A stretch of 64,000 nt of DNA from Escherichia phage PC3. A program made the position numbers and the translations under genes. Positions 1,228-52,010 of the stretch are shown piece after piece (position 1 is the stretch's first letter; every line of letters begins with the position of its first letter). Where the stretch lies: sequence record ON184125; one strand, given 5' to 3'. The notes beneath the pieces are model-generated. The model saw nothing but the letters and a program-made list of their open reading frames with translations, ran no database searches and was not told where the DNA came from.

Positions 1228-1887
1228 ATGTCCTACTCCCTGAAGGGGCTGATGAAGCGCCCCGTCCACACATTCTTTAAACCACCCGTCGTAAAGGGGA
1301 TCTACCCAGCACGAGGGCAAATCTACTACGTCAAAGGCTCCAATGGTAGCGGTAAATCCACTGTGCCGTCTCAGCTGGCGGAGAGGGATCCTCAGGCGTA
1401 TGTCGTGACCCATAACGGCAAGGTAATGCTGACTGTCTGTCCTTCGTTCAACGTGGTCTGTATCGGTAAATATGACAAGTCGAAGTCCAAGGGGGTTGAT
1501 TCCCTGAAGGACACTGAGCAGATGTTGTTCGCGTTGTCTATTGCTGACCAACCAGAATACTTGAAATATGATGTGATTTTCGAAGGTATCATTCCATCCA
1601 CATTATTGAGTTCTTGGATCCCCCGCCTGACACGCCCACCACGTGAATTGGTTGTGCTCTTTATGGACACTCCCCTTGAAACGTGTATCTCCCGCGTTAA
1701 ATCACGTAACGGCGGTGTGGACTTCAATGAAAGTCTGGTGGTCGAGAAGTGGGAGAGAGTTCATGACCATCGTCAACGACATAAAGACTTGTTCCCTACG
1801 GTAGCTGCGGGTATGATGAAGTCTCACGGCCTAACGGTAGACCAGGCTGTGATGGCATTCCTCTGTCGTGATTTTGGGAGTATCTGA
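1228..1887 (+). CDS. P-loop NTPase / nucleotide or DNA kinase (candidate 5-hydroxymethylpyrimidine DNA kinase)
   Basis: Walker A GSNGSGKST; later IGKYDKSKSKG and IFEG motifs shared with the C-terminal domain of the 44142-45740 ORF; TGATG overlap with the downstream hydroxymethylase. Confidence 0.7.
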   Translation: MSYSLKGLMKRPVHTFFKPPVVKGIYPARGQIYYVKGSNGSGKSTVPSQLAERDPQAYVVTHNGKVMLTVCPSFNVVCIGKYDKSKSKGVDSLKDTEQMLFALSIADQPEYLKYDVIFEGIIPSTLLSSWIPRLTRPPRELVVLFMDTPLETCISRVKSRNGGVDFNESLVVEKWERVHDHRQRHKDLFPTVAAGMMKSHGLTVDQAVMAFLCRDFGSI

Positions 1888-9776: not shown

Positions 9777-10028
9777 CATGCGCAAGTATTTCAATTGGCT
9801 GTTGGCAAGCCCCTGATGCGCTGAGATCCGTTGTCTAATCGATGCCATTGACGCCAAGGCTGTTTACAAAGCCCTCTCCCGACATCACAAGCGCTAGATT
9901 AATCGCACAGAGGCTCAGGCCGAAATTAAAAATCGTGAAGAAGTCCACAAGGCTCTGGGTTTCATAACAAATAATTCAATAAACTATTCACCCATATAAT
10001 ACATGGGAACTTACAGAAGGAACAGACC

Positions 10029-10370: not shown

Positions 10371-10483
10371 CTGAGGACTACACACTGACCTCATTATCGG
10401 TCAGGCAAAATCTCACACCCGCCAATAATCTATTGAAGTCCCCAGGGTTATAATAGCAGCACATATAACCCTGGAGACACCAC

Positions 10484-12385: not shown

Positions 12386-12602
12386 CAAGAAGTACATGTA
12401 CAAGGTTCTGCTGAGCCTCGGGGTGTCACAATCTGGGCTGGCTCGTTTATTGGATTGTTCTAATGTTGTGAACTACTGGGCGAAGGGTTATCGTGTTGTC
12501 CCCCGCTCCTTCCGTCGCTTCATCCTGGTGTTACAGTTCATCAAGAAGAAAGGGCTGATGGAAGAGTTATTGCAATTTATTAAAGAAGAGGAACGCAAAT
12601 GA
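12351..12602 (+). CDS. HTH (XRE-like) DNA-binding protein
   Basis: LGVSQSGLARLLDCSNVVNYWAKG resembles a Cro/C1-type helix-turn-helix. Confidence 0.4.
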   Translation: MSLRMKELPVNDKKYMYKVLLSLGVSQSGLARLLDCSNVVNYWAKGYRVVPRSFRRFILVLQFIKKKGLMEELLQFIKEEERK

Positions 12603-26840: not shown

Positions 26841-28739
26841 TTATTCATCCTCAGTTTCAAATAGGCAAACATCGCTAAACCAGGTTTTGCGGTAATCGGC
26901 GGCCTCGTCACCGAAGCCATTCTTCAGTGACTGTTGATAGCCATCGTCCAGCGTGACCGTCGTAGTATACGCATCCAGGTTGTTTAGAATACGTTTGAAG
27001 TCTTCAGTGCTGTTACCACCCAGACCTTTCAGATATTTCTTCTTCGTGATCTTCTTGGCATCAGGCGTCTTCAGGAACTCCTCATACTCTGCGTTGTTCA
27101 TGAACTCATGCATCACCTTGCCACACCACACACGCATGTAAGGGGTGCGCAGGAGCTTCAGCCTGCCCTGACGGACGTACTCCGGCCAGTAGGTGCAATA
27201 CAGGGTGATCAACAACCCACGGATGTGAATGCCGTCATCGTCCGCATCGGTAGCCACAACAGTCTGTGGGTAACGGGTGATGTCAAGGGGCTGGCCTGGT
27301 ACTGCACCGCCGTGGATCGTACACAGGTTCTTGAACTCTTCATTGTTCATCACCTTTGAGCGCGGGGCGTTCAGGCAGTTGATGAACTTACCACGAAGCG
27401 GGAACAACCCGATCTTCTTGGTGTCGCGGGCGTTCAGGATAGGATTGGAGGCACTATCACCCTCTGTCAGCAACAGGGAGCATCCGCTGCGGTCACCACG
27501 GGCGGTCGCCGGGTAATACTTCTCAATCTCACGATAATCCCGCTTGCTGATGTCCTTCTTGGCCTTTTCAAACTCAGCATCATCCTGCTCATTGCGCAGG
27601 GAAGCCAGTTCTTTGCTCAGACCAGCCGTAACGAACTCAAGCGCCTTGCGGATCAGTTTATCGCTGGGCTTGTACGACGTACCGAACTGGCTTACAGGAG
27701 TGGTCATGCGCTCCTTGGTCTGGCTGTCAAAGCGCGGGTTGTTGATGTCGGCGGCGATGAACAAGGACATGTGGTTCTTGATCATTGCTGGCTTCAGTTC
27801 GGTCTTGAACTTCTTCACCAGCTGGGGACGAATCGCTGCCACGATCTGGTCAGCAACATAATCAACGTGAGGACCACCGATGTGGGTGGCAATAGAGTTC
27901 ACGTATGATGCGTGCATGAACGTACCGGATGAAGGGGCTACAGCAACAGACCAATCCCCGGTTTCGTCAACAGCCGAACCAGCATGGAAGTAATCAACGA
28001 AGTGGCCAAAGCGGTCAATCCGGATTTGCTTCCCATTGAGAACAATCTTCAGGCGCGGGTTACACGCAGCCACTTCAAACGCGCGGCGATAGATCATCAG
28101 CAGGTTGTTCTGGTCAAGTCCTTTGACGCCCAGACGAGCATAGTCAGGGATCCAGGCGATGGATGTGCCGGGACTGTTCACGTTGCTGATGACTGGGTTA
28201 GATTTCTTGCTCATGTTGTCTTCAAACGTCTGAGTATAAGACTTCTTGCCGTCATTAGTCGTGACGCGGAACCATTTGGAGAACACGTTGACGAGGGACG
28301 CCCCTTCGCCATTCTGACCACCGGACTTCTGGTTGTTGTACTCTTCGTCTTCGTCGTTGAAGTTCGATCCTGCAAACAATTCTGAAAATAACATTTCTGG
28401 CAACCACATACCAGATTCATGCTTGACCACAGGGATACCCCCGTTGTCAGCAACGATGATTTGACCGTTCATCGGGGAAACTGTGACGGTGATTTCCGTC
28501 AGGGATTTACCCTCAGGGGTCTTGCTGTGGTCAACACAGTTGGTGATGATTTCATCAAACTGTTTGATAAGAGCGGGGTTATATTCAAAATTGTCTTTAA
28601 ACACAACTTTGTCTTTGCTGAGATCATATACCCAAGCCATCCCGACAGAAGAACGGATACTCCCTAGATGGCGCTCTGGGCGAAGGAGTATATGCTCGAT
28701 GTGTGAGAGCTTTTTGTATTTTCTGTTTACATCAACCAT
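26841..28739 (-). CDS. DNA topoisomerase II large subunit (gp39/gp60-type, GyrB-like ATPase plus Toprim)
   Basis: GHKL ATPase N-terminus and Toprim LLLTEGDSA motif; uninterrupted 632 aa. Confidence 0.9.
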   Translation of the reverse strand: MVDVNRKYKKLSHIEHILLRPERHLGSIRSSVGMAWVYDLSKDKVVFKDNFEYNPALIKQFDEIITNCVDHSKTPEGKSLTEITVTVSPMNGQIIVADNGGIPVVKHESGMWLPEMLFSELFAGSNFNDEDEEYNNQKSGGQNGEGASLVNVFSKWFRVTTNDGKKSYTQTFEDNMSKKSNPVISNVNSPGTSIAWIPDYARLGVKGLDQNNLLMIYRRAFEVAACNPRLKIVLNGKQIRIDRFGHFVDYFHAGSAVDETGDWSVAVAPSSGTFMHASYVNSIATHIGGPHVDYVADQIVAAIRPQLVKKFKTELKPAMIKNHMSLFIAADINNPRFDSQTKERMTTPVSQFGTSYKPSDKLIRKALEFVTAGLSKELASLRNEQDDAEFEKAKKDISKRDYREIEKYYPATARGDRSGCSLLLTEGDSASNPILNARDTKKIGLFPLRGKFINCLNAPRSKVMNNEEFKNLCTIHGGAVPGQPLDITRYPQTVVATDADDDGIHIRGLLITLYCTYWPEYVRQGRLKLLRTPYMRVWCGKVMHEFMNNAEYEEFLKTPDAKKITKKKYLKGLGGNSTEDFKRILNNLDAYTTTVTLDDGYQQSLKNGFGDEAADYRKTWFSDVCLFETEDE

Positions 28740-29562
28740 TATTATCTCCGTAAAATTTCAACCAGGCGGGATCTTCTTTTGGTATCCAACCTTTCTGAAA
28801 TTTAGATATACAAGTTTGAGCTGTGGCCTTAGAACAAACAGAGCTTAACCCGGTTTCTTTCAACATTAAACAATAACGGTTCTTCACTTTGTCTTCACCG
28901 TTACTATACCACCATTCAAAGAATTCACCAGCCAAGAGCCATTGTCGGGATTTACCCGTCTTTACGACAGTCGGGTGTTCCCAAGGTTGTATGTTATTCA
29001 TGGGATTGTTCTGGCGCCACATAGCAGAATACCTCTCCCTTTCTTCTGGTCGCCTCATCCGTTCGGTGACTGATTTGGTAAGATTGGCTTTGTGTGCTTC
29101 GGAGTGTGGTATCCCTTTCCTGGATTTTGACAACCTGCGCCTTGATTCGTCATTCCAAGTGTAACCTCTCAAACTATCCGCACGTTTCTTCTGTACTTCT
29201 GGGTTCAATGAGTTTTTCTTGGATTGCTTACGACAACGTTCCTTTTGTTCATCAGATGACATCACTTCTTTCATTCTGGTGGAATTATTTCTCCTCAATT
29301 CCCCAAACTCTTTGTTGTTCCTAGACATGTTGTTCATCCCAGTCCATGCCTTCCTGATACCGGGGTTGAGTGGTTTTGTTCTCCAAAGTAAGTGATGTAC
29401 GACATAATGTTCTTCTGGTGTCAACCATACAAGATTAGAGAAGTGGTTAGTGCCACCCAAGCACACAGGGATTATATGGTGGCGTTCTTGATAAACGCCA
29501 TCCATTTTACCTCTCTGTATTGCTCTCTGTATGAGAGCGTCTAAGATGATTTCGTATTTCAT
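28732..29562 (-). CDS. HNH homing endonuclease
   Basis: HHIIPVCLGGTNHFSNLVWLTPEEHYVVHH motif; C-terminal FQKGWIPKED module. Confidence 0.8.
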   Translation of the reverse strand: MKYEIILDALIQRAIQRGKMDGVYQERHHIIPVCLGGTNHFSNLVWLTPEEHYVVHHLLWRTKPLNPGIRKAWTGMNNMSRNNKEFGELRRNNSTRMKEVMSSDEQKERCRKQSKKNSLNPEVQKKRADSLRGYTWNDESRRRLSKSRKGIPHSEAHKANLTKSVTERMRRPEERERYSAMWRQNNPMNNIQPWEHPTVVKTGKSRQWLLAGEFFEWWYSNGEDKVKNRYCLMLKETGLSSVCSKATAQTCISKFQKGWIPKEDPAWLKFYGDNNG

Positions 29563-30140
29563 AAGCCAAATTTGCTACGCCACTTTTCAACCTTGTGTTC
29601 AATAGCGTGCTCCACTTTAATGCGAGTGGCCATCAAAGAGGATCCACGGATCGCCCCTTCCCCACACCCCATGCGCGCAACATGCTTGATTAGGTCATTG
29701 ACGAGTTGATCCAATCTGTCTTGACTGCGATAAGGCTGGTTACACAATCGGATAATCCGGCCATGATAATGATGGATAAGATTCAGATGCTTTTGAGGAT
29801 CACGATCAATCAGACGGAACCAGTCTTCTTCCAACAGATTAGAAGAAATATCGTTCACTATCGCCATGTGGTTGATGACAGAGTCGATCATTTCGGCCTT
29901 GTTCATAGAGCCGCGCATTTGGACGTCGTCATAATCCATGACGTACAGAAGGTCAATAGCAGAGATAATGACATCAGCAACTTCGCCATTCAACGGCTCG
30001 GAAGATACTATGCCATGAAACACATCAGACAGTTCACAGATCTCTTCACCTAGTTTGTTCAGAACAAACACAGGCGAACGGTCTGGGGTATGAGCAGTGC
30101 AGTCATAAGAAGTGTCGACGATAGTGTGTAGAAATTTCAT
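29559..30140 (-). CDS. MazG-like all-alpha NTP pyrophosphatase (candidate)
   Basis: LGEEICELSD and EVADVIISAIDL resemble the MazG EExxE/ExxD pattern. Confidence 0.4.
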   Translation of the reverse strand: MKFLHTIVDTSYDCTAHTPDRSPVFVLNKLGEEICELSDVFHGIVSSEPLNGEVADVIISAIDLLYVMDYDDVQMRGSMNKAEMIDSVINHMAIVNDISSNLLEEDWFRLIDRDPQKHLNLIHHYHGRIIRLCNQPYRSQDRLDQLVNDLIKHVARMGCGEGAIRGSSLMATRIKVEHAIEHKVEKWRSKFGL

Positions 30141-41874: not shown

Positions 41875-42072
41875 TTAATAGAGTTTGGTGTATGTTTGTT
41901 TGACACGCATAAAAGTGCTCATATATTTTTGTGATCCCACCAAATGAGCAAACGCAATTTCTGCCGAACTCTTGTCCTTGAACTCCAGAACGGAAGTGTC
42001 TACTGCAATAGATTGATTCTTCCCGTCGAAGCCAACGGTTGTCACTAAGATCTTATAATCTTGGGTTTCCAT
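41875..42072 (-). CDS. hypothetical protein
   Basis: 65-aa ORF with RBS-like AAGGA upstream. Confidence 0.35.
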   Translation of the reverse strand: METQDYKILVTTVGFDGKNQSIAVDTSVLEFKDKSSAEIAFAHLVGSQKYMSTFMRVKQTYTKLY

Positions 42073-42093
42073 GATGTATATCCTTGCAAAAGA

Positions 42094-42128
42094 AAGGGGA
42101 ACGGGCTAATAATAACCCATTCCCCTTT
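42094..42128 (-). terminator. hairpin (AGGGGAACGGG...CCCATTCCCCT) with TAATAATAA loop plus T-run
   Basis: Downstream of small ORF 42154-42321; followed on the minus strand by TTTCTTTT. Confidence 0.45.
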
Positions 42129-42153
42129 ATTGAAGGAAGCAACCCCAGTCAGA

Positions 42154-42321
42154 TTACTTTTTCTTCAGCTCGTCCAGTTTGGCTTCGATCTGGTCCAGAA
42201 TCTCTTTGCCTTTCTGAACAATCACTTCACCATCTTGCGCGTGTTTACGGAAGACCAGAGCACCAGCGATGAAGCCGACAACCGCGCCAGGAAGCGCATA
42301 AACCAGCAGATCTTGTAACAT
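42154..42321 (-). CDS. small protein (55 aa), below the ORF-track size cut-off
   Basis: GAGG RBS 8 nt upstream of ATG; hydrophobic N-terminal half, charged C-terminus. Confidence 0.35.
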   Translation of the reverse strand: MLQDLLVYALPGAVVGFIAGALVFRKHAQDGEVIVQKGKEILDQIEAKLDELKKK

Positions 42322-42357
42322 GATAATATCCTCGCTTTATAGGCGAGGATATTTATA

Positions 42358-43584
42358 TCAGCGTTTCAAGAGTGTCATGAGGTTGACGCTGCTGGACTTC
42401 GGTTTATCAATCTTCGGTTTACCCAATTCTCGATACACCTGGTCAGGCTCCCAGCGCGTACCCTTTTGCAGGTGCCAGATATGCAGAGGAACACCAGTCT
42501 CAAAGAACACAGGCATCTTCCACTTCTGGACGCCTGGAACGTGCCCTGCAGGAGCCTTTTCGCACAACAGGGTATCTGGCAGCCAGAGCGAACGGGCTTC
42601 CCAGAGCGCTGCGCAGGAGTATTCAGGCCAGACGCGTTCCATGTAGTCTATCTCATCCCAGGTACGCTCTGCGTCCCACCCGATGTAACGAGTATTCTTC
42701 AGTCGGAAGAATTTCTTCAGCCAACAAGCACCGGAGGTTTCAAAGTTCAGGCGGTTGATGAACGTCAGGTGCCCGAACTCAGCCACACAATCCTGGAACG
42801 CCTGCTCAAGGTCGGCCTCAAGGATGTCACACTCTTCATCCGTGATAGGGCAACTGTTGATCTTTTTCTTCCCGTGTTTAGTCACCCAATCGTCACGGTT
42901 GGACAAGAACGCCGCGCCATTACGGTTGGACTCGCTTCCATCACGATCACGCAACATGAAGCCAGGGACGTCAATGGTGTATTCGTTCCCGAAGACCATG
43001 TTCAGGGCTTCCAGGAAGTTCCAGGCGCTCAGGCGACCGAAGTATTTCCAGGACATCGCCGTGTCCCACAGCTGGGTGAATTGTTCTGTCTTATCGATGC
43101 ACACCAACATCCCACGGAAAGCGTCATATTGAGTACGGCCAGCCAGCCAGTCAATATAGGACTGAACACACGGAATCATCTTGGACTTGCGGTAGCGACA
43201 GTCGGTATCGAATCGCATGCGATCAAAGTTCAGATTATACCAATCAGAGAAGCGCTGCATCTCTTCCTTAGACTGAGGCGGCACAGGGAACTCACTGTAG
43301 ATCGTCCACGGCCCGACGGCGTTATAGCAACAACCCCACAGGAATGCCATCCAGATCTTGCGCTCGACTTTCTGTTCGAGGCTGATGCCTTCAGTGACTT
43401 CGATCGCATAGTCCATCAGACGCATCTGCTGGTTGTGCTCTTCTGTGTAGGACAGCGCCTCCACCCAAGCCTTGAGCAAGTACATGCGATTCTCAGGCTT
43501 GCGATAATCAACAGCCAGGTCAATCGGGTACTTCCATTCAGCCGGAGGCGTATAGCCCGTCGGCATTTTAGATAAATGATGCAT
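42358..43584 (-). CDS. hypothetical protein (408 aa)
   Basis: Long ORF with no motif recognisable by eye; candidate accessory enzyme. Confidence 0.55.
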   Translation of the reverse strand: MHHLSKMPTGYTPPAEWKYPIDLAVDYRKPENRMYLLKAWVEALSYTEEHNQQMRLMDYAIEVTEGISLEQKVERKIWMAFLWGCCYNAVGPWTIYSEFPVPPQSKEEMQRFSDWYNLNFDRMRFDTDCRYRKSKMIPCVQSYIDWLAGRTQYDAFRGMLVCIDKTEQFTQLWDTAMSWKYFGRLSAWNFLEALNMVFGNEYTIDVPGFMLRDRDGSESNRNGAAFLSNRDDWVTKHGKKKINSCPITDEECDILEADLEQAFQDCVAEFGHLTFINRLNFETSGACWLKKFFRLKNTRYIGWDAERTWDEIDYMERVWPEYSCAALWEARSLWLPDTLLCEKAPAGHVPGVQKWKMPVFFETGVPLHIWHLQKGTRWEPDQVYRELGKPKIDKPKSSSVNLMTLLKR

Positions 43585-43945
43585 CTTTCGCTTCCTCTTC
43601 AGGAGCCACAGCTTCAGGCTCAGGAGCCAGCTGAATATCTTCCGGCTTCACGAACCCCATCGGACGTTCCCACATATCGATAAAACGACGGTCAGCGGTC
43701 ACGAACCACAGACGGGCTGCAGTGTGGGTCTTACCCGAGATGAACATCTGAGCGTTCGTCTGGGTACGGAACGGAGCAGCCTGCAACCACTTTCCGAAGT
43801 CTTTGGACGACGGATTGGCATTCAGCTGGAACTGAGGGATGACGCAGTTCTTTTCAGGAATCAGGCGCACGGCAGTAATGTGCTTGGCGTTTCCGGTGTA
43901 GTCGATCGCAACAGCCACAGCATCGCGAGGGATTTGAATTTTCAT
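43568..43945 (-). CDS. hypothetical protein
   Basis: Start moved to internal Met that is ATGA-coupled to the upstream small gene. Confidence 0.4.
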   Translation of the reverse strand: MKIQIPRDAVAVAIDYTGNAKHITAVRLIPEKNCVIPQFQLNANPSSKDFGKWLQAAPFRTQTNAQMFISGKTHTAARLWFVTADRRFIDMWERPMGFVKPEDIQLAPEPEAVAPEEEAKDASFI

Positions 43946-44145
43946 TTTGGTTCCTTGAATATTTTGTAACCAGCAGCGCCGATAGACATCACCGCGCCAA
44001 TACAGTACATCACAGTCACGTTCAACTTCTCTGAGGTTGTTAAGTCCAGAGGGGTGAAATGATAGGCTAGGGCAGTACACATTGAAACGGCTGCCATAAC
44101 CAGACCAATGAACAACAGATAATTAGACAACCGTTTCATGATCAC
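43942..44145 (-). CDS. small membrane protein
   Basis: 67-aa ORF, two hydrophobic helices. Confidence 0.35.
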   Translation of the reverse strand: MIMKRLSNYLLFIGLVMAAVSMCTALAYHFTPLDLTTSEKLNVTVMYCIGAVMSIGAAGYKIFKEPK

Positions 44146-45740
44146 CCCTTCTTCATCAGGTCAAGGAGAGAGCGCGACGCTGCCTTCGTTGCTTCTGGCT
44201 GGGCGCTCGCCTTGGTTTTAGTTTTGGATGCCTTCTGCGGCTTCTCAGGCACTCTGTGCGCCAAAGGGTTGCTACCCTTAATCTTGCGCAACATTGGTGT
44301 GGTGTCGCAATATTTTTGAAACTCTTCTTTGGACAACCCTCTCAATCCAACAAAATCTATAATAAAACTACCAATAAAGTGGAGAGGGGCATCGAAGAAT
44401 TTCAGTATATTCCAACCAACTGCCTTTACACCATTTTCATTCGCTGCCTTTGCAATGAACAACTCATTCTGAGAGTCTGGTTCAAGTTCGTATCCGATGG
44501 CAGCGTACTCACTCATGATCTTGACGTGATCCTTGGTGTATTGTTCATTTCTTCCCCAGCCAGTGTCCTTCGCCGCCTTACCAGAACGACCGATGATACG
44601 TTTGTCGTAATCTTCCCGCGCTTGGTAAATAAAGGAGATGAATGCCATGTTGTTGAACCCCAAGTCCTGGTGTACGAACTCGGGACGCCATCGATGGCTC
44701 TGCATCATAGGTTCCCCCTCCAAGATGATAGTTGCATCTTTGAACTTTATTTTGAGATACTTCAACAACGAATTGGCCATCTCAGAAGACTTGAGAGTGG
44801 AGTGTATGAAATCCATAGAAGTCCATGATGCTAGACCTGATTTGTTGGACACTGTATACTTGCCGATGAACACCAGATTGATTTCCTTGAACCAAAACCC
44901 AACCTGGATCATCTTCTTGTCGAATTCGTATTCTATGAGTTCTGGCTCATATTTGGTTCTCAACCACTCAAGGAATTGAACGACACGAGTCCCCTTTCCC
45001 GTTCCACTTGTCCCGCGAATAACGACAATACCCGGCGTCACGCTAGAATTTATCATAGTCATAAAACGTTTGTCCTCTTTGGGAATCCAACCATCTTTAA
45101 ACATGGCGATCATATTACGAAAGACGCTCTCATCGCCCTTTAGATTACGATACTCTGTGTCCAGTAGTTTAGAATACCACAATCCGATAGATTTGTAACC
45201 ACATCCTCGTTTTGGTATACAGGTAGGATTCACAGTACCACCGTTATTCACCCATCTATCATAGATCCTACGGGCGTCCTTCCAAACCCACCAATAACCA
45301 TTTGAAACCATGAATGGGTAGGGAGAATTACCCCTGTTCTCCTTTATTGATTTTATTACACGCTCCCGGTATTCTGGATCATCCCAAGGATTTATACCAG
45401 ATTTGTATTTCTTGCCAGTCCTGGCCAACGCCGCCTTAAATTGGTTTGGTATGATAGAATTGTCTCCTCCCAATTTCAGGTTCAGACATAATGGGTCCAA
45501 CAGTAACTCTTCCGTAACAATAATAGACTCCAGGTCGGATGCCTCCAACCTGGTTTCAAACTTTTCTATTATCGTCTTTAAGAATTCAGAAGCGGGGTGA
45601 GATTCCAACAACCTTTTGATGATAACACCAGAACCCATATAGGGGTCTTGTTCGGGGGCGCATGAACAAGACCGAATCCCGACGTAGAATCTCCCAGTTG
45701 GGACATGGGTTATCCTATATGTGTAATGGTAGCGAGCCAT
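44142..45740 (-). CDS. GIY-YIG homing-endonuclease domain fused in frame to a P-loop kinase domain
   Basis: N-terminus YTYRITHVPTGRFYVGIRS...YMGSGVII (GIY-YIG); FKDGWIPKEDKRF module at about aa 215; C-terminal half has Walker A GTSGTGKGT, IGKYTVSNKSG and ILEG, paralogous to the 1228-1887 kinase. Confidence 0.7.
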   Translation of the reverse strand: MARYHYTYRITHVPTGRFYVGIRSCSCAPEQDPYMGSGVIIKRLLESHPASEFLKTIIEKFETRLEASDLESIIVTEELLLDPLCLNLKLGGDNSIIPNQFKAALARTGKKYKSGINPWDDPEYRERVIKSIKENRGNSPYPFMVSNGYWWVWKDARRIYDRWVNNGGTVNPTCIPKRGCGYKSIGLWYSKLLDTEYRNLKGDESVFRNMIAMFKDGWIPKEDKRFMTMINSSVTPGIVVIRGTSGTGKGTRVVQFLEWLRTKYEPELIEYEFDKKMIQVGFWFKEINLVFIGKYTVSNKSGLASWTSMDFIHSTLKSSEMANSLLKYLKIKFKDATIILEGEPMMQSHRWRPEFVHQDLGFNNMAFISFIYQAREDYDKRIIGRSGKAAKDTGWGRNEQYTKDHVKIMSEYAAIGYELEPDSQNELFIAKAANENGVKAVGWNILKFFDAPLHFIGSFIIDFVGLRGLSKEEFQKYCDTTPMLRKIKGSNPLAHRVPEKPQKASKTKTKASAQPEATKAASRSLLDLMKKG

Positions 45741-46045
45741 TACACAGCATCCTCAATACGCCAGCTCACGCCGCCCAGCCAAGGTGCCCAGAACACAGCA
45801 ACCTGTGGGCAGCCATTCTCTTCAAACTTAACTTTATACTGGTCGTCGAAGTTATAGAAGATTTCATCCGCTTCAGAGCGCTGGCCGATCTTCACCAGTA
45901 CATCATGAAGAGCCTTGGCTGCACCGATAGGAGTTGGAGTCTCCTGCTGGCGAATGAAGTTGTTCACATGGTTAATCACGCTATCCATGTCGCTATCACC
46001 GGAACGCTTGTCTGGGGTTTCCCCAAACTTGGATTGTTCTTGCAC
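45740..46045 (-). CDS. hypothetical protein
   Basis: 101-aa ORF. Confidence 0.4.
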   Translation of the reverse strand: MQEQSKFGETPDKRSGDSDMDSVINHVNNFIRQQETPTPIGAAKALHDVLVKIGQRSEADEIFYNFDDQYKVKFEENGCPQVAVFWAPWLGGVSWRIEDAV

Positions 46046-46054
46046 GATGTCCTC

Positions 46055-46834
46055 CTATCGGACGTATTGATAATGACTAATCAGGCGGTTAACCACTTCA
46101 ACAATATTGTAATTCAGGAAGTCGAAGTGATTCTGGCCTTCTACTGGTTTAATATAAAGCATGTCTTCCGAATTCGAAAGATCCAGTTTTTCATAATTGC
46201 CCTGAGGAACAAAGATGACAAAGATGTTGTTCAGGCCGCACGGCTCGACATACTTCGGATTGTCATCAATCAGGACATCGCCAGCCAGCAGATGCTTTTC
46301 GTCGGTGCTGACAAATCCGTTGAAGATACCAGGGAACTTGTCGTAGACAAACTGGCGCTTGCTGCGCTCGTGTTCCGGCTCACACTTGGACACTGCGATG
46401 AATTCAACATTGTCGAAATCTTCGAGCAAGATATCCTTCAGATTTACCAGGAACTCGTAAGCGCCGGGGAGCGGGTTCATCTTGGCGTACAAGTCAGGGC
46501 GACGCCACCAGTCCATAGGATCGTTACCGCTTGGCACACGTTGTTTGTGCATCCCCAATTGTACTTCATGGTATAGCCACGCCGGATGCGCACGTTCACG
46601 CATCAGAATAGCCAGGTCGCCAGCATGGGACATATAACACTCTTTGGTAATCGGCTGGAACTGGTATGACTTATGTTCCCCCGTAGCGATAGCAGCGGCG
46701 GCGATGTTCTCTTCGTTAAACCACTGCACCCAAGGGGAGAGGCTGTCGACCAACGTCAGGTCAACATCCACGAGGACGCGATACAGGCCACCGACCTTTG
46801 ATTTCATATCATAGATACAAACCAGGTTGTTCAT
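46055..46834 (-). CDS. HAD-superfamily phosphatase (5'/3'-deoxyribonucleotidase-like)
   Basis: HAD motif I VLVDVDLTLVD (DxDxT/V). Confidence 0.55.
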   Translation of the reverse strand: MNNLVCIYDMKSKVGGLYRVLVDVDLTLVDSLSPWVQWFNEENIAAAAIATGEHKSYQFQPITKECYMSHAGDLAILMRERAHPAWLYHEVQLGMHKQRVPSGNDPMDWWRRPDLYAKMNPLPGAYEFLVNLKDILLEDFDNVEFIAVSKCEPEHERSKRQFVYDKFPGIFNGFVSTDEKHLLAGDVLIDDNPKYVEPCGLNNIFVIFVPQGNYEKLDLSNSEDMLYIKPVEGQNHFDFLNYNIVEVVNRLISHYQYVR

Positions 46835-47181
46835 TTGTCTTCCTCAACTTTATCGTAGCCTGTAGCAACACACTGTTCTTCGGTACAATCTGCATACAGA
46901 ACGACGGAGGCCTGCTTCACGTAGGTGATGCAGTGGTAAGTTTCGTCTTCCTGGATGGAATCGTCATAATTGCAGACAGTTTGGAGCGGACCCGGAGTAG
47001 TGTTGTCCAGTGCTGCATGCGCCTTGATGGTGTCTTCCATCTTGGACACGGCCTGCTCATTGGTGAACGTCGGCGTGTCAAGGTCTACAGTAGAAGCAAC
47101 GCCCAGAAGGGTGGAACACGCAGTGGTAGAGAAAGCCAGAGCACACACCAGAAGAATCTTATTGAGTTTCATTTCAATCAC
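46831..47181 (-). CDS. putative lipoprotein
   Basis: Signal-peptide-like N-terminus with lipobox-like FSTTAC; several Cys in the mature part. Confidence 0.4.
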   Translation of the reverse strand: MIEMKLNKILLVCALAFSTTACSTLLGVASTVDLDTPTFTNEQAVSKMEDTIKAHAALDNTTPGPLQTVCNYDDSIQEDETYHCITYVKQASVVLYADCTEEQCVATGYDKVEEDK

Positions 47182-47202
47182 CTGTTTGTCAAAGGGTTAA
47201 CA

Positions 47203-47220
47203 GGGGGAATTATATCCCCC
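47203..47220 (-). terminator. hairpin GGGGGAAT-TATA-TCCCCC downstream of the DNA polymerase
   Basis: Perfect 7-8-bp stem between the polymerase stop (47235) and the next gene start (47181). Confidence 0.4.
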
Positions 47221-47234
47221 TTTGGTTTATTGAA

Positions 47235-48816
47235 TCAACCTTTCTTCTTTTGCATCATGGCAAGAAGGTTCACACGGCGCTTGTGTGACCAGCCGACCAC
47301 GTCGAGGATAGACTGAATCGGATCAATGAAGGACTTCTCAAAGGCCGCCTGATAATCCACCCATTTGCCCAGACCAAGCTCCTCGGGGAAGAACTCAGGA
47401 TATGCAAAGTAGTTCTGCCCAAACGGGTTGCCCGGCTTCAATAACACCATCTGTACCTTATCACCCGACTCGATCATCGGTAGACCCAGATCTTCGTTCT
47501 TCTCAACCAGACGGTTGTAGCCCACACACGCCTTGGCAGCAAAATGAGCACCAGATATAAACGAGCCGTCAGCAGCCACACACTTCTCTATGTCGGACAC
47601 GCCTGACGCCTTGGCGATATCGTCTACAGAGAGTTTCATGTACTCCTCTTTGTACTGGGAGATGAGCGTCTGTACTTCCTCTTCGGTGCCGAGTAGGATC
47701 TTCTCATAACACTTGACAAGACGCTCACGACACCATTCCGGCGTGGTGGACTTGCGGGCTTCCAGACCTTTGAACTTGATCTTCGGCTTCTCATACTTGA
47801 TACCCTCACTGTCGTACACGGCCATGGCATACATCTTCTTGGCTCGCCAGACAGCGGCTGACGCAATGACCTCACGCTCCCATACCATACGCTGTTCAAA
47901 TCCGTTCATGGTGTTACACAGAAGCTGTGCCCACTCATTGGTCTTCGGCTGGTAGTTGTCTTTGATCCATTGGTCGATATTATCAACCATAGCATGATGG
48001 TCAGTAACATCAGGCCACAACTGCTTGACAAGACGCTCAATGCAGATGTAGTTGGAGTCGGTATCACCTGCGATGACGAAGTCCTGGCCTGTTGTACCAC
48101 ACAGCTTGTTCAGATAGTCATCAGTGTAACGCTTGTTCCACTTGTTGATCAGCTGACCGGATGTGGTGATGGCTTCGGCAATGTTGAGGTTGAAGTACTC
48201 TTTGAACCAGACGTTCGAGATCGCGCCATAACCTGCGTTCATCAAGATCTTCAGACCTTGCTGTAGGGTATCTTGAGCGACGCCCAGGTCTTCCCACTTC
48301 TTCATCACTTCGGTCAGGGCATCAAGATCAATGTTCTTGTGCTCTTCATACCACTCTGGGTCATAGTAGCGAGACTTCATGGCAGACTCAAGATGGAAGT
48401 CGCCCTTCGACATCTCTTTACACCAGCCAGCCCACTGCTCATACTTCAGACCCTTGGCCTTCTCTACTTTACGGTCGCTGTAGATACCACGCATGATTTC
48501 AGACAGGAACGACATCTTCTCGTTGCTGAAGAATTGAACGTTCGGTGTGAACGACACGTTGTAGCGGCGCAGGGTTTCAAAGTGGAACTCACCCAGGGCA
48601 ACCAACTCATCAACAACCTGCAGGCGTTCGTCAACCGCACGCAACAGCTTGTCGTGAAGGGCTTTCATCAACCGACGTTTGTGCATCGGCGTTGCCATGT
48701 TATTCATCTGAGCAGCCAGCTCTTCACACATAGCCTCAATAATCTCGCGGCGCTGGTGTTTGTCGCCAACGATAGTCTCAGGACCGAGGTTGTACTGCTG
48801 AATGATGTGTGGATAT
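47235..48816 (-). CDS. DNA polymerase (family B) exon 2: second half of motif A through C-terminus
   Basis: Starts with YPHIIQQYNLGPETI matching T4 gp43 YPSIIRQVNISPETI; contains motif C VIAGDTDSNYICIE; both exons together are 3000 nt in frame. Confidence 0.85.
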
Positions 48817-49281
48817 CGCTTGTGTTCAGGGATGCTCGCTATTTCATCCCCCGTGTTCGTCATTCAGTTTACCGAACACTGCTGTATGTCACCATACAGG
48901 CCAGACTATATCACAATCTCCAGAACTGTCTAGAGATTCTCTCCATTTCGAGGCGCTTGCCCCTACTCTACTCGCTTCAGATCAGACGCTTAGTCGTCGG
49001 TCTTGCTTTCGATAGTCGTTGAACCTTGTCGCCCACTACTTCAAGGAAATCATCTGGGTTTAACCCAGCGTAACCAAAGAGTCGTTTGAAGTTTCTTGCC
49101 AACTTGCCCCACTCATTCTGGCAAACATTTCCTTCATGACCTTACTCCTTCACCGAGGTTACAGAGTATTTAGATCTTCGTGGCCGACCTTGGCTGCTGA
49201 TTATCTCTAAAGAGACTTCCCAGCAATTAAGAGAGTTATTCGATGGTTGTCGCCAACCAAAGCCCCTATGCTGCTAACTTA
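48817..49281 (-). mobile_element. group I self-splicing intron, ORF-less (~465 nt), inside the DNA polymerase gene
   Basis: Interrupts motif A between DLNSL and YPHII; 5' exon ends in U that can pair (U-G) with intronic GGGG guide; intron ends in G; GGGTTAAACCCAGATGA, ACGACTAAGCG and GATATAGTCTGGCC resemble T4 td intron P3 and P7 elements from memory. Confidence 0.7.
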
Positions 49282-50699
49282 AGGGAGTTCAAATCTTCCG
49301 AGAAGACCCAGAAGTAGATTCCTGGTGTCACATCCATGACGTATGCACCCTCAAAGTCGGTCGGACCATCGTATACACGCTGGATCTTAGGCACTATCCC
49401 CTTCTCGTACAGGCGATAGTAGCACATGGCCAGCCACGGAGCCACAGTGCCCAGACCGTCTTCATAGTTGGACTTGGTGCGGTAGGCCAGGACGAACATC
49501 AGTTGGAGCAGGCGCAGCTTCTGTTCAAGTCGCCATACCAGCTTAACGTCTTTGATACCATATCGGGTGTGTTTGCAGTAGTCGTTGAAGTACAGATCAA
49601 AGAGCGACTTGCTCTCACTGTAGTCCATCTTCTTCTCACCCAGCTCACAATACGCAATCCAGTCAAGAGAGTAGCGTTCACGGGTGGTGTACGTGTGTTT
49701 CTTGTAGATCTGCATATAATCGAGCATAGGGCAACCCACGAACTGATACGTCGTGATATCGCCCTTCTTATCGCGAATGATACGCTTCTTAATGATACCC
49801 CAAGGACTGAGGCGCGACGTTTCAGCCTCACCCAGAACCTGATTCATGCGCTCAACAAGATAAGGGCTATCAAACGTCTCAATGTTCCAGCCTGTCCAGC
49901 CGTCGAACTGACGCTGTGACCAGAAGTCAAGGAAAGATCGCAGCAGATCCTGCTCGGTGACAAACTCCTTGTACTCCACCTCAAGTCCACCGATCTCCGC
50001 GTCTTCTGGATCGTATCTGAACTTCGCACGATCCTTCGCGCACGGCATACCCCACACCATGAACTTATTGGTCGCCATGTCCTGAAGCTGGATCAGGGTA
50101 ATGGGGAACGCCGCATTCATGTCTTGGGTGATCTTACCGTTGCTGTCAATGATAGGGAACTGATCAGTGACGTTGTTGCTGATAAAGGAACTGGGAAAGT
50201 GCTCACGGATGAAGTCATGGTTGGCCAGTACCTGCTGATGGAAGCGGCGAATGCGCGCCTCATTCCCTTTGAACGTCTGCTGCTCAATGGTTGGGTGAGG
50301 GAATGGACCTTTGGTCATCTTTCCATCTTTCCACCCGGCGGAGAACACTTCGATATCGAGGTTAGCAATATGGATGTTGGAGTAATCCGGCTCAATCTTT
50401 CCAGGAAAGCTATGGGCGATGAACTGGTATGCATAATCGGTCTGCCCGTAAATGGCTGCACCCTGGACTTCCTTGTACTCTTCAAGGTAGTTGTCAGCAG
50501 TGCGCATGTCAGGGAACTTCTTGGAGACCAGGGGTTCGTTGAGCAGGCCGACCTTTTCAACATTTGAATAATCAGCCGTGGGTAAATAGAGAGTGGGTTC
50601 GAATTTCTTTTTCAACAGACGGCGATTACCCATGTCATCTGCAATTCGAATCAACAGGTCATTGCCCCTGCGGGCAACGTTCGTATAGAAAACGGTCAT
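49282..50699 (-). CDS. DNA polymerase (family B) exon 1: N-terminal and 3'-5' exonuclease domains through first half of motif A
   Basis: N-terminus resembles T4 gp43; Exo I HIANLDIEV; ends ...GAYVMDVTPGIYFWVFSEDLNSL then stop in the unspliced frame. Confidence 0.85.
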
Positions 50700-50778
50700 G
50701 TAATTCTCCAGGTTATCCGTGCCGTTAGCACGTGGGTATATTTAACCATAGAGCCATTCATTGACCAAGGAGTTTATT

Positions 50779-51351
50779 ATGGCAATCCCCCTCGTTGGTA
50801 TGATCCCAGGGGCGCTCAAGCAACTCTGGAACCTCGGGACTGATTTGATCCAATATAAGCGGGAAGTTGTACAGGCCAAACACGACGTCAAGCTGGAGGC
50901 CATCAAGTCCTCCTCAGATTGGGAGCTGTCTAAGATTACCGAAGTCGGCGGGTCTTGGAAAGACGAATTCTGGACTATCGTGTTGGCCATACCCGCCATC
51001 CTCGTCATGACTGCTCCGGTTGTGGAACTGATTCTGTTCCCTGGTGAGTATCATAAAGGGGATTTCATCAAAGCAGTAATCGGTGGCCTTCAGGCACTAG
51101 ATACCGCACCTGAATGGTATACCTATTCGTTATTGACAGCAATTAGTGCATCATTCGGTATCAAAGGCTACAACCACTACAAAAGCAACAGGCGAAAAGC
51201 CCAAGCTATGGATGCTCTCAAGCAATTTGGGGTTCGGGTCGTACAGAAAGATCCCACTGTTGTTACTCAGTCGGGTTCTCCCGATCTTGAGTCTGCTCCC
51301 CCAGCTGGGTCTACTGCGACCTCTGGTGCGTGGCCTGATCTGAAGAAATAA
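50779..51351 (+). CDS. membrane protein (holin-like candidate)
   Basis: Start placed at ATG 50779 after AAGGAG RBS; hydrophobic helices near both ends. Confidence 0.4.
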   Translation: MAIPLVGMIPGALKQLWNLGTDLIQYKREVVQAKHDVKLEAIKSSSDWELSKITEVGGSWKDEFWTIVLAIPAILVMTAPVVELILFPGEYHKGDFIKAVIGGLQALDTAPEWYTYSLLTAISASFGIKGYNHYKSNRRKAQAMDALKQFGVRVVQKDPTVVTQSGSPDLESAPPAGSTATSGAWPDLKK

Positions 51352-51357
51352 GTTCAA

Positions 51358-51381
51358 GGGGAGGAAACTCCCCTTTCTTTT
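51358..51381 (+). terminator. rho-independent terminator (GGGGAG-GAAA-CTCCCC then TTTCTTTT)
   Basis: Perfect 6-bp GC stem, GAAA tetraloop and T-run immediately after the 51351 stop. Confidence 0.7.
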
Positions 51382-51393
51382 GGTGTTTAGGGA

Positions 51394-51606
51394 ATGAATG
51401 TGGTAAACAAGAGATTGCTCGTCACCCAAGGCGGGGCGACGATAGTGCGCGGAAGGATCTATGAACAAACACAGCTGGGTGATCACAAGACACGCCTGAC
51501 TATTAAGGCTCCCGATGGTGGTTGGCCAACAAAGGTGATTGTCCCAGACGGTCTCATAGAACGAGGGTCGGCGGTGTATAAAGGAGCGGAGTTCAAAATT
51601 TATTAA
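51394..51606 (+). CDS. hypothetical protein
   Basis: 70-aa ORF. Confidence 0.4.
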   Translation: MNVVNKRLLVTQGGATIVRGRIYEQTQLGDHKTRLTIKAPDGGWPTKVIVPDGLIERGSAVYKGAEFKIY

Positions 51607-51692
51607 AATATTTATTGAATAAAGTTTACTTCTTCAATAACTGGCGTATACTTCTAATTGTAGTACGAACAAACAACAATCTGAAGAGAAGG

Positions 51693-52010
51693 AAATACAT
51701 CATGGCAATCACAAAAGAACAATTTGAAGCACAACTGGCTAAATCTAACAAAGAAACCGTTGTTGCTACCTTTAAGTTCCACGCAGTGAGAAACGCAGAA
51801 GCGCTTATGATTGCCCAGTCTTGTACTCCAGACTCAACTTTCAACTCTGTCGTCTCTTCGGCTTTGTTTGACAACCCAGCGTGTGGGCTGGTTCCGGCTT
51901 CCTTCCTGAAAGCCCTACACAAAGCATTCAACGATTTTATGGTGGTTGACGCGGTTGAAGAAGTTTGCTCCCGCTTGACATTCAAAGATTCTAAATTCAT
52001 CTTTGTCTAA
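51693..52010 (+). CDS. hypothetical protein
   Basis: Start placed at MAITKEQ with GAAGGAAA RBS. Confidence 0.45.
   Translation, partial: KYIMAITKEQFEAQLAKSNKETVVATFKFHAVRNAEALMIAQSCTPDSTFNSVVSSALFDNPACGLVPASFLKALHKAFNDFMVVDAVEEVCSRLTFKDSKFIFV

Follow-up and report, generated by a model that had tools for sequence, protein, structure and literature searches.

The minus strand of the window (the whole 64,000-nt stretch of DNA analysed here) carries at 44142..45740 a single open reading frame of 532 codons, of the F-LimXI type, in which a GIY-YIG endonuclease is joined in frame to a 5-hydroxymethyl-dU (5-hmdU) DNA kinase 2. We consider that this ORF is probably an old mobile cassette of two parts, namely a Seg-like GIY-YIG homing endonuclease and its own diverged, intact kinase 2. 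In all comparisons below, PH4 denotes the Escherichia phage (Ackermannviridae) that carries the window fusion.

Layout and reading frame of the fused ORF

The fused ORF starts with an ATG (45738-45740) that shares bases with the TAA stop of the gene before it, as TAATG. Since residues 2-34 show a dN/dS of 0.05-0.07, the true start is placed at 45740 and not at Met35, where GenBank begins the PH4 gene under the label 'homing endonuclease'; other records label the gene 'kinase' or 'hypothetical'. This inconsistency of annotation between records (endonuclease, kinase, hypothetical) could be taken as a sign that a sequencing or assembly error erased a stop or a frameshift between two genes in this genome only. 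Yet two metagenomic contigs and no fewer than 10 phage genomes sequenced independently of one another have the same open frame, and synonymous divergence is seen across the junction among fused alleles. We give an artefact practically no credence and reject it, as comparative data from many independent genomes already refute an error.

All 12 independent fused alleles compared, nine of them from further phage genomes, two from metagenomic contigs and one from an IMG/VR locus, read through as intact ORFs of 527-533 codons with no stop ahead of the kinase. The original prediction, that one ORF runs without a stop from endonuclease into kinase, is thus borne out in the window and in these 12 alleles, and the comparison indicates that the uninterrupted frame is genuine and no assembly artefact. 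An intein or an intron-encoded endonuclease was also rejected, given that there is no Hint/splicing domain and no surrounding intron, and that the endonuclease begins at residue 1. A Pfam search of the fused ORF returned no families beyond HMUD2 and a below-threshold AAA_22.

The endonuclease half

Evidence from PHROG, tblastn, HMMER, conserved residues and fold converges on residues 1-226 being a Seg-like GIY-YIG homing-type endonuclease, as had been proposed for the N-terminal ~225 aa from inspection of the sequence. The domain matches PHROG 314 'homing endonuclease' (E=3e-24, aa 1-225) and T4-type segB, segD and segE (tblastn, E=1e-8 to 1e-10), and 6146 GIY-YIG-type proteins match it in HMMER. 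The Pfam GIY-YIG family PF01541 gave no match to the N-terminal domain, and PF19835 (SegE_GIY-YIG) gave E=0.07, under its cut-off.

Invariant residues, fold and tblastn matches to SegB/D/E define a catalytic core at aa 1-95 (45456..45740, minus strand). Every residue that is invariant in 93/93 relatives is kept here: Y8, Y19, G21, Y34, G36, G38, E71, N87, G91 and G92. The motif reads ..YHYTY8RI...GRFY19VG21, with Y8 as the 'GIY' tyrosine and Y19-V-G21 as 'YIG'; both tyrosines lie near the N-terminus and their spacing fits the 10-11 residues of GIY-YIG. Further core motif residues are R23, Y34-x-G-S-G, E71 and N87, and the basic position after YIG, position 23, is Arg in 67 of the 93 relatives, His in 22 and Lys in two. 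Judged by order and spacing and not by residue-level superposition, E71 and N87 would be the counterparts of E75 and N90, the catalytic Glu and Asn of I-TevI.

The AlphaFold model of the core (aa 1-90) has pLDDT >92 and a beta-beta-alpha-beta-alpha-alpha topology, and its top Foldseek matches in the PDB are to the I-TevI catalytic domain (1mk0/1ln0), at a probability of 0.82-0.85 and a target-normalised TM of 0.61 over ~95 columns, with an E-value (0.37) that is not significant alone. Sequence searches of the PDB, run once with the N-terminal domain by itself and once with a profile of 95 sequences, gave no significant GIY-YIG match, the best being UPF0213 1zg2 (E=0.64).

The remainder of this half, a linker and a C-terminal DNA-binding-type region (aa 96-226, 45063..45455, minus strand), is assigned from PHROG matches and conservation: it matches the C-terminal parts of homing-endonuclease PHROGs 25551, 7504, 655 and 26163, and it holds the conserved block GYWWVWKDARRIYDRW...MPKRGCGYK...GDESVFRNMIAMFKDGWIPKED. 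AlphaFold confidence is low here (38-66). The original prediction had this half ending in the same FKDGWIPKED module as two HNH endonucleases of the window. The likeness stands, in that an FxxGW[IV]P tail is common to the endonuclease half and both HNH-type ORFs; the identity does not, as the ORF at 28732-29574 (minus strand) ends in FQKGWIPKEDPAWLKFYGDNNG and that at 12584-13294 (plus strand) in FQKGWVPYNDENWVKFFEEMKNA.

The kinase half and its paralogue

Residues 236-531 (44148..45035, minus strand) match Pfam PF18747 HMUD2 at E=1.3e-156 and 520.8 bits, against a gathering cut-off of 25 bits, over profile positions 2-298 of 298. GTSGTGKGT, its Walker A motif, lies at 44988-45014, IGKYTVSNKSG and ILEG are present, and 50 columns are invariant over the window kinase and 30 free-standing relatives of 36-51% identity. 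The model of this domain is mostly above pLDDT 85; Foldseek with the full-length model found only weak P-loop kinase matches (guanylate and adenylate kinases, E ~3e-3), with no solved HMUD2 structure among them. By these sequence criteria the kinase half is a complete 5-hmdU DNA kinase 2, predicted to phosphorylate 5-hmdU in DNA. Free kinases of the gp243 type are ~43-44% identical to it, and gp243 of Salmonella phage ViI has been shown to convert 5-hmdU in DNA to 5-PmdU by phosphorylation (PMC8989533).

The C-terminal P-loop domain had been read as a paralogue of the kinase at 1228..1887 (plus strand) with parallel motifs, and both motifs and Pfam agree: the latter protein is the 5-hmdU DNA kinase HMUD1 (PF18748 HMUDK_HMUD1, E=3.6e-109), it contains GSNGSGKST, IGKYDKSKSKG and IFEG, and it adjoins a thymidylate-synthase-like dUMP hydroxymethylase (1887-2933, PF00303). 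Direct alignment of the two kinases, on which the proposed paralogy hinged, gave 32% identity over 68 aa in BLASTP (E=5e-4), and a profile comparison gave E=1.5e-4 over 133 columns from Walker A to the R..R.G motif. The similarity is significant though distant, which indicates that the HMUD2 domain and the HMUD1 kinase are real but remote paralogues.

Genomic neighbourhood

Upstream lies a 101-aa gene with a DUF7254 domain (45740..46045, minus strand; PF23912, E=1e-51), which some phages label 'thioredoxin'. It overlaps the next gene by TAATG, GTGA or ATGA in all allele types, an arrangement from which translational coupling to the fused ORF is deduced. Within its 3′ end, at 45748..45769 (minus strand), is a 22-mer, GTGAGCTGGCGTATTGAGGATG, identical in 16 loci that span at least four genera and all three allele types described below. 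It abuts the left block boundary and holds the GAGGA that serves the start of the fused ORF, which makes it a candidate recombination or recognition site.

Three small ORFs beyond the kinase lies its downstream pathway partner, an amino-acid:DNA transferase of the ADDT/aGPT-Pplase2 type (42358..43584, minus strand; PF18724, E=7e-60), whose ViI homologue gp247 is a serine:DNA transferase (PMC8989533). Besides ADDT, the thymidine-hypermodification genes that share the window with the fusion are NT5C (46055-46834), HMUD1 and the thymidylate-synthase-like gene (the last two at 1228-2933). An Rfam scan of 42000-52000 had a single match, a group I intron at 48882-49269, which sits in the DNA polymerase gene.

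Three alleles and replacement of a whole block

Among 350 kinase-bearing phage records, drawn from a collection of 50,697 phage records, the locus has three alleles: the kinase alone (301-305 aa) in about 80% of the records, a separate SegD-like endonuclease gene with a free-type kinase in 40, and the fusion in 28. The original prediction turned on endonuclease-free alleles in related phages, and such alleles were found in the close relatives LHE287, SKML-39 and Menlow. The free-standing SegD-like GIY-YIG gene of the second allele is an unrelated endonuclease at the same site, so the DUF7254/kinase junction appears to be a homing hot spot.

Fused-type and resident-type kinases are 50% identical in amino acids overall, 43-46% over the variable part, and their DNA is ~57% identical. 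Both the N-terminal domain (at >=60% identity) and the fused kinase clade (at >=80%) occur in 28 of the 50,697 records, and no member of that clade without the endonuclease domain was seen in the collection; the other 322 kinase records are <60% identical to the fused kinase, the best of those listed reaching 46%.

The block that differs between alleles has sharp limits. It begins at the start codon, or at most 8 nt before the stop of the upstream gene, and ends ~120 nt before the stop of the kinase gene. The resident-type 3′ tail beyond it (AHRVPEKPQKASK...MKKG*, 44142..44261, minus strand) lies outside the mobile block and is 99% identical to A221 and LHE287, the remaining ORF being 48-58% identical; the upstream edge of the tail is the right-hand recombination boundary. 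Between PH4 and A221 the flanks are 99-100% identical and the whole block differs. The same is seen for LIMEstone1 and Coodle, two phages of the same species with near-identical flanks (98-100%), and for KpS110 and Menlow (flanks 98-100% identical), where the right boundary is the same and the tail is of the Taipeivirus type. Conversely, the block of PH4 is closer than its flanks to those of pSal-SNUABM-02 (97% vs 88-90%) and PMBT18 (92-93% vs 75-81%). Together with the occurrence of the fused block in Agtrevirus, Limestonevirus, Kuttervirus, Taipeivirus and unclassified phages, these identities indicate that the block has moved horizontally between lineages. PH4 and KpS110 share 72-76% over the block and ~72% over the flanks, so that the block is no closer than the flanks, and part of the history of the fusion may be vertical.

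Age and selection

A search of 1.84 billion representative proteins returned only two that cover the whole N-terminal domain, both fusions of ~530 aa. The fusion P0071 is 65% identical to PH4 in the N-terminal domain and 63% in the kinase; for P0072 the figures are 37% and 40%, with the same junction (...GWNPHTDEVYLKMLNSSV...). The P0072 contig is an unrelated phage contig of 57% GC and different gene order, in which the fusion stands directly upstream of the ADDT gene. Scans of IMG/VR, with a single protein and with a 4-sequence alignment, recovered three known phage lineages and no others, and a scan of bacterial and archaeal genomes found no fusion. When the kinase part was the query of a homologous-protein search, the matches were all free-type kinases of at most 46% identity; the search missed the known fusions too and is uninformative on distribution. 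The same database gave no matches to the N-terminal domain and likewise misses known fusions.

In a neighbour-joining tree of the kinases (200 bootstraps, deep nodes unresolved), the fused kinases form a clade apart from the gp243 type in 200/200 replicates. The kinase of P0072 grouped with the Ackermannviridae fused clade in only 9 of the 200, so that a single origin of the fusion is suggested by the common junction and linker and not by the tree.

The proposal that an endonuclease had invaded a second kinase gene and fused to it was right about both parts, but a local event in the resident gene is not supported: the fused kinase is a deeply diverged allele tied to its endonuclease, it comes as a sharp-edged block, and the same fusion exists elsewhere at 37-40% identity. 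These points make the fusion an old one whose two halves travel together. The family-invariant GIY-YIG residues are retained in every fused allele, P0071 and P0072 keep the catalytic-type residues (position 23 is His in P0072), and the dN/dS values, 0.10-0.19 in the endonuclease domain and 0.04-0.07 in the kinase, place both domains under purifying selection.

A possible internal start for the kinase

The active kinase may be the fusion itself (61 kDa) or a protein of ~35 kDa with a start of its own. The domain junction (45054..45077, minus strand) contains a Shine-Dalgarno-like GAGGA at 45073-45077, Met227 at 45060-45062, in agreement with its earlier placing at about 45062, and Met229 at 45054-45056. 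The kinase could therefore be made mainly as a separate protein of ~305 aa, begun at Met227 in the PH4 type or at the equivalent of Met229 elsewhere, with the read-through fusion a tolerated by-product of a lost stop and the endonuclease still mobile. We regard this as a serious possibility, though clearly the less probable one; it concerns the expression of the kinase only and can be combined with the mobile cassette.

Several features agree with an internal start. Counted back from an in-frame junction ATG, a GAGG(A) core is found at 10 nt in the PH4 group, at 9 nt in P0071 and at 11 nt in P0072, borne by different codons in each, and such a core precedes just 27 of the 380 internal in-frame ATGs (7%) in the long ORFs of the window. 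The authentic starts of the fused gene and of a free-type kinase have the same GAGGA at 9-nt spacing, and the product would have 304-306 aa, matching the 301-305 aa of free kinases. In PH4 and LIMEstone1 the mRNA near Met227 falls within the 5% of windows with the least structure, but KpS110, P0071 and P0072 lack this weak-structure signal, and mRNA structure is inconsistent across lineages.

The conservation of the frame argues the other way. A start of its own would make a stop or frame change at the junction harmless, yet none of the 12 fused alleles has one, and separate frames, which the SegD-like allele does have, never appear in fused alleles down to 37% identity. Met227 is kept only in the PH4/LIMEstone/KpS110 group, and P0071 and P0072 have Leu there. 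All fused alleles keep Met229, but in the W[LV]KF C-terminal tail of other endonucleases its counterpart is the Phe, and the residue may be structural; the GAGG also falls in conserved acidic codons. A promoter and terminator scan inside the fused ORF gave signals at shuffle level, with no internal promoter signal rising above shuffles.

Proposed mechanism and a possible phage function

For the favoured mobile cassette we infer cleavage activity, a cleavage target and a repair route. In a mixed infection the endonuclease would cut a co-infecting Ackermannviridae phage whose allele lacks the endonuclease, at or near the presumed target, the DUF7254/kinase-2 junction, and double-strand-break repair would copy the donor allele. 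Because donor and resident kinase DNA are only ~57% identical, repair would resolve only in the conserved flanks, that is, the invariant 22-mer that closes the DUF7254 gene and, ~120 nt ahead of the stop, the conserved tail 'DPLAHRVPEK...', and the whole resident kinase would consequently be overwritten by endonuclease plus kinase. The kinase of the cassette would then restore the lost function, phosphorylation of 5-hmdU in DNA, with which hypermodification of the ViI type (aminoethoxymethyl-dU) begins. The endonuclease ORF would escape the usual decay because a frameshift or nonsense mutation there also removes the in-frame kinase.

For a purely selfish element it is unusual that an endonuclease stays intact so long, and this could instead reflect a phage function of the domain. 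The N-terminal domain would in that case have ceased to be selfish and would serve the modification pathway, either by tethering the kinase to DNA with its DNA-binding region or by attacking unmodified or competitor DNA as a nuclease that the kinase guides through its recognition of 5-hmdU. The co-divergence of both halves (65%/63% in P0071, 37%/40% in P0072) with the fusion persisting and purifying selection on each is consistent with such a role. So is the finding that the most conserved part of the N-terminal domain, strongly kept even in the 37%-identical P0072, is residues 148-223, a DNA-binding-type block next to the kinase, and so is the place of the distant fusion within a modification cluster, directly upstream of ADDT; the substrate of the kinase is, moreover, DNA (PMC8989533). 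Against this, about 80% of Ackermannviridae lack the domain and phages of the same species differ in it. The patchy distribution, the sharp boundaries and block identity exceeding flank identity are the signature of a mobile element; all catalytic residues are kept, which a mere tether would not need; and a second homing endonuclease occupies the same site. We thus judge domestication improbable.

It is also rather unlikely, if slightly less so, that the in-frame join is itself an adaptation that makes the two activities interdependent in one polypeptide, in either of two versions between which this slim probability is shared. In the first, 'addiction by translation', the endonuclease could be neither deleted nor allowed to decay, being the obligatory N-terminus of the modification enzyme that is its cargo. 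In the second, a modification-guided nuclease, the 5-hmdU-recognising kinase would direct or license the GIY-YIG domain against newly replicated DNA of competitors that is not yet hypermodified. Either version, if true, would be a previously undescribed coupling of a selfish nuclease with a DNA-hypermodification pathway.

Comparison with known systems

The gene has been described before by its parts. F-LimXI of Dickeya phage LIMEstone1 (ORF186) is an ortholog with the same junction, its endonuclease 91% identical in nucleotides and its kinase ~95% in amino acids, and PHROG 15209 is the fused family to which the window ORF belongs. The LIMEstone paper (Adriaenssens et al. 2012, PMC3296691) gives F-LimXI solely as a free-standing SegB-like GIY-YIG endonuclease, the PP35 paper gives the orthologous gene solely as a kinase, and the dual nature of the gene was not noted in the literature searched. 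The label 'homing endonuclease F-LimXI' has meanwhile spread in databases to kinase-only genes (Coodle, XF4, AR2819). In practical terms, the gene is annotated in three incompatible ways: as an endonuclease, as a kinase and as a hypothetical protein truncated at Met35.

The fusion offers a natural test case for the self-stabilisation of selfish nucleases and for nuclease-driven exchange of whole alleles among Agtrevirus, Limestonevirus, Kuttervirus and Taipeivirus. It also raises the question of whether a swap of kinase 2 alters the pattern or extent of thymidine hypermodification, a change that bears on how phages employed in biocontrol and therapy evade restriction.

As a kinase, the window protein resembles ViI gp243/HMUD2 in its full-length match, Walker A, invariant residues and gene company, namely NT5C, DUF7254 and ADDT/aGPT-Pplase2 and, elsewhere in the genome, HMUD1 and the dUMP hydroxymethylase. 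What sets it apart from the gp243 type is the endonuclease domain of 226 aa, together with a linker of nine residues (INSSVTPG...); free kinases have neither. Where Lee et al. 2021 (PMC8989533) deal with 5-HMUDK fusions, the partners named there are pathway enzymes (PLP enzyme, aGPT-Pplase), a nuclease not being among them.

As an endonuclease, it shares with the T4 Seg enzymes (SegB/D/E/F/G) the GIY-YIG core, the linker and the C-terminal DNA-binding region and, as a gene, insertion at a gene boundary beside a conserved gene, presence or absence in close relatives, and flanks that travel along. For SegF, SegG, SegB and SegE of T4, intronless homing that co-converts the genes alongside is an established process (PMC2988022). 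Unlike the Seg genes, the window endonuclease lacks its own stop and is read on into the product of its neighbour; its co-traveller is a permanently linked diverged allele (~44-50% in amino acids) and not a short co-conversion tract, and the linkage is old, extending down to 37-40% identity. Set against the class of free-standing homing genes, it thus has the presence/absence polymorphism and the co-inherited flanks but not a separate ORF of its own.

Selfish frames tied to a useful gene are known from organellar group I intron endonucleases fused to the upstream exon and from inteins, and the window endonuclease is likewise translated as part of a host protein. Unlike these, it sits at the extreme N-terminus with no upstream exon or extein, and its removal from the mature protein is not indicated. 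Homing endonuclease genes, whether free-standing or in introns and inteins, usually cycle through invasion, decay and loss; the window endonuclease has remained whole, and in one frame with a useful enzyme, as the halves diverged to 37-40% identity, and it would spread by overwriting the resident allele.

A single frame joining an endonuclease to a kinase

In the region tested, the window is 100% identical to Escherichia phage PH4 (ON184126.1; Ackermannviridae, Aglimvirinae). The endonuclease-kinase gene is, as the original prediction had it, one uninterrupted frame; it encodes 532 aa and lies on the minus strand (44142..45740). Its ATG shares bases with the TAA that ends the DUF7254 gene (101 aa) just upstream (TAATG) and is preceded by GAGGA 9 nt 5′. 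The GenBank CDS of the PH4 gene, labelled 'homing endonuclease F-LimXI', begins at Met35, as do those of PMBT18 (L008) and PP35 (L023), and the GIY motif is thereby lost. In all three phages the 34 codons ahead of Met35 begin with an ATG or GTG overlapping the upstream stop codon. Since the GIY motif falls within residues 2-34, which show dN/dS of 0.05-0.07 (45638-45740, minus strand), the 532-aa ORF is the real gene, not the Met35 version. The label 'putative homing endonuclease (F-LimXI)' is also found on kinase-only genes of Dickeya phages Coodle (L011, 2492-3421) and XF4 and of Salmonella phage AR2819, to which it apparently spread because they resemble the fused gene's kinase half.

Residues 1-226 are not recognised by the Pfam GIY-YIG model and gave no significant GIY-YIG match in PDB sequence searches. 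Their assignment as a GIY-YIG homing-type endonuclease is nonetheless borne out by PHROG 314 'homing endonuclease' (E=3e-24), by tblastn matches to T4-type segB, segD and segE, and by a full HMMER scan in which 6146 of 1.84 billion representative proteins matched. All residues invariant in 93 relatives are kept (Y8, Y19, G21, Y34, G36, G38, E71, N87, G91, G92), and position 23, Arg or His among relatives, is Arg. The AlphaFold model of residues 1-90 (pLDDT >92) has the I-TevI catalytic domain as its best PDB fold match (TM 0.61, probability 0.85, E=0.37). Residues 96-226 are poorly modelled and match C-terminal parts of other homing-endonuclease PHROGs. The FKDGWIPKED tail, first thought to be the same as that of two HNH endonucleases, is similar but not the same when compared with 28732-29574 (minus strand) and 12584-13294 (plus strand). 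Both these ORFs match Pfam HNH weakly (E=0.003-0.017, below cut-offs) and have in common with the GIY-YIG domain a C-terminal FQKGW[IV]P..D..W[LV]KF module, which is a case of DNA-binding-module sharing across nuclease classes.

Residues 236-531 match the whole of Pfam PF18747, HMUD2 ('5-hmdU DNA kinase 2'; E=1.3e-156). The HMUD1 kinase (PF18748, HMUDK_HMUD1) lies at 1228-1887, with a thymidylate-synthase-like gene next after it. All motif pairs from which the two had been called paralogues were found in the kinases, and alignment agrees (BLASTP, E=5e-4 with 32% identity in a 68-aa stretch; hhalign of the HMUD1 protein with an HMUD2 profile, E=1.5e-4 over 133 columns); they are distant paralogues. 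PMC8989533 and PMC5889632 describe ViI gp243, a free-type kinase 2, as phosphorylating 5-hmdU in DNA to 5-PmdU, and gp247, the ADDT homologue, as transferring serine en route to 5-aminoethoxymethyl-dU. Among metagenomic HMUD2 relatives, three (P0049, P0055, P0059) bear an unrelated N-terminal extension of ~75-85 aa (MAFPTDLS...KW...GE.Y), and the kinase-2 family has therefore gained extra N-terminal domains more than once.

Three alleles at the kinase-2 site

The order DNA polymerase, small ORF, NT5C nucleotidase, DUF7254, kinase 2, small ORFs and ADDT is conserved in Ackermannviridae, with three alleles at kinase 2. Related phages do possess endonuclease-free alleles, as in LHE287, SKML-39 and Menlow, where the kinase stands alone (301-305 aa, beginning MAKIIVVKGTSG). 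In the second allele (RPN242, Ag3, Coodle) the same kinase shares 8 nt with a separate SegD-like GIY-YIG gene of 228 aa. Of 50,697 phage records, 40 contain this gene, among them Vibrio phages in which it is 61% identical. Escherichia phage A221 carries an intact, unannotated copy (L010, ~3041-3727), which matches the RPN242 one at 99.1% identity across 228 aa, and its annotation gives the adjoining kinase a short CDS of 852 nt. The third allele is the fusion of ~530 aa (PH4, LIMEstone1, pSal-SNUABM-02, CAU_YEP3, PMBT18, KpS110, UTK0004, CECAV_050, PP35), the type seen in 28 of the 350 records that have a kinase-2 homologue; the endonuclease domain is likewise present in 28 records of the phage collection.

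The DNA polymerase gene (family B) is itself divided in the window, into pieces at 49266-50741 and 47235-48863, by a group I intron (48882-49269, minus strand; Rfam RF00028, 58.6 bits, full-length model). The intron is only 388 nt long and so has no space for an internal endonuclease ORF. In LHE287 and SKML-39 the polymerase gene is undivided (3000 nt).

Movement of the block

Between PH4 and A221, both flanks are 99-100% identical, against ~50-58% from the fused start codon to ~120 nt before the stop. The boundaries are the same for LIMEstone1 versus Coodle (one species) and for KpS110 versus Menlow, with a 3′ tail of the Taipeivirus type in the latter comparison. Near the stop of DUF7254, at its 3′ end, the 22-mer GTGAGCTGGCGTATTGAGGATG (45748-45769, minus strand) directly adjoins both endonuclease insertions, the fused block and the SegD-like gene, on their left side. 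It does not vary among 16 loci that span at least four genera and all three allele types and whose flanks are otherwise only ~72% identical. It may anchor recombination, belong to a homing site or act as a translational-coupling signal. The block is also more similar than its surroundings: 97% between PH4 and pSal-SNUABM-02 (flanks 88-90%) and 92-93% between PH4 and PMBT18 (flanks 75-81%). Such boundaries and block-over-flank similarity are marks of a mobile element copied with its adjacent gene. The fused gene of Yersinia phage CAU_YEP3 (L007, 2382-3980) is a mosaic, 97% identical to PH4 in the kinase domain and 82% in the endonuclease domain, the N-terminus of which is LIMEstone/KpS110-like, a sign that cassette variants have recombined.

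The kinase half is 50% identical to the resident kinase, except for the last ~40 residues, which are identical. In the phage collection, 28 records are at least 80% identical to the fused kinase and the other 322 fall below 60%, the best among the matches listed being 46%. Fused kinases of Ackermannviridae form one clade in a neighbour-joining tree (200/200 bootstraps), outside the free-type clade. The original prediction, that an endonuclease invaded and fused to a second kinase gene, was partly right: it holds for the homing-type endonuclease and the paralogous kinase, and a local fusion is not supported, since the kinase half is so distant from the resident one, lies in a separate clade, and is swapped together with the endonuclease as a unit.

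Age of the fusion and the junction

Purifying selection acts on the endonuclease domain (dN/dS 0.10-0.19) as well as on the kinase (0.04-0.07). Only two of 1.84 billion scanned proteins span the N-domain in full, and each of them is a fusion: P0071 (527 aa), with ~65% identity in either half, on an Ackermannviridae-like contig with the same synteny, and P0072 (533 aa), 37% identical in the N-domain and 40% in the kinase, on a 57%-GC contig with different neighbours and ADDT directly downstream. The gene set of the latter contig (L012, SRR33317134_5860) differs from that of Ackermannviridae; close to its modification genes are coding sequences for a PF18723 HMUDK_hel protein and for one that is ALC-like (9584-10771). 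The junction is homologous in PH4, P0071 and P0072: GW.P..D, five residues, M-[ILV]-[NS]-[SQ]-S-V and P-loop beta-strand 1. Because the neighbour-joining tree places the P0072 kinase neither with nor apart from other fused kinases, a single origin of the fusion rests on this common junction.

A functional internal start, as first suggested for Met227, from which the kinase would be made separately, is possible but somewhat improbable. The GAGG core ahead of the junction ATGs is suggestive: GAGGA lies 10 nt 5′ of ATG-227 in the PH4, LIMEstone and KpS110 alleles, GAGG lies 9 nt (P0071) and 11 nt (P0072) 5′ of the ATG that corresponds to Met229, and such a core precedes only 7% of the internal in-frame ATGs in long ORFs of the window. 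However, the GAGG falls within conserved acidic codons, conservation does not extend to Met227 itself, the counterpart of Met229 in the tail module of other endonucleases is a Phe, and the mRNA-structure signal is inconsistent. Nor have the frames separated in any lineage, though a kinase with a start of its own would not suffer from it. Taken as a whole, the fusion is an old and conserved arrangement; it travels as a cassette and takes the place of the resident kinase, and cleavage and homing are its predicted activities.

Comparison with known systems

In the LIMEstone paper, F-LimXI (ORF186) is a free-standing SegB-like GIY-YIG endonuclease and the kinase is unmentioned (PMC3296691); in the PP35 paper this gene, as ORF183, is put among the kinases (PMC6336734). 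No description of the fusion was found in literature on F-LimXI, on GIY-YIG with aGPT-Pplase, or on Ackermannviridae homing endonucleases and hypermodification. Lee et al. 2021 report 5-HMUDK fused to pathway enzymes, and none of the fusions mentioned in the relevant part of that paper involves a nuclease. Intronless homing with co-conversion is known for T4 Seg endonucleases (PMC2988022), and here, too, an adjacent gene seems to be copied along with a mobile endonuclease. Unlike free-standing GIY-YIG homing elements, the endonuclease is no longer free-standing, and the fused gene is best filed among them as a non-free-standing variant rather than as a new kind of system.
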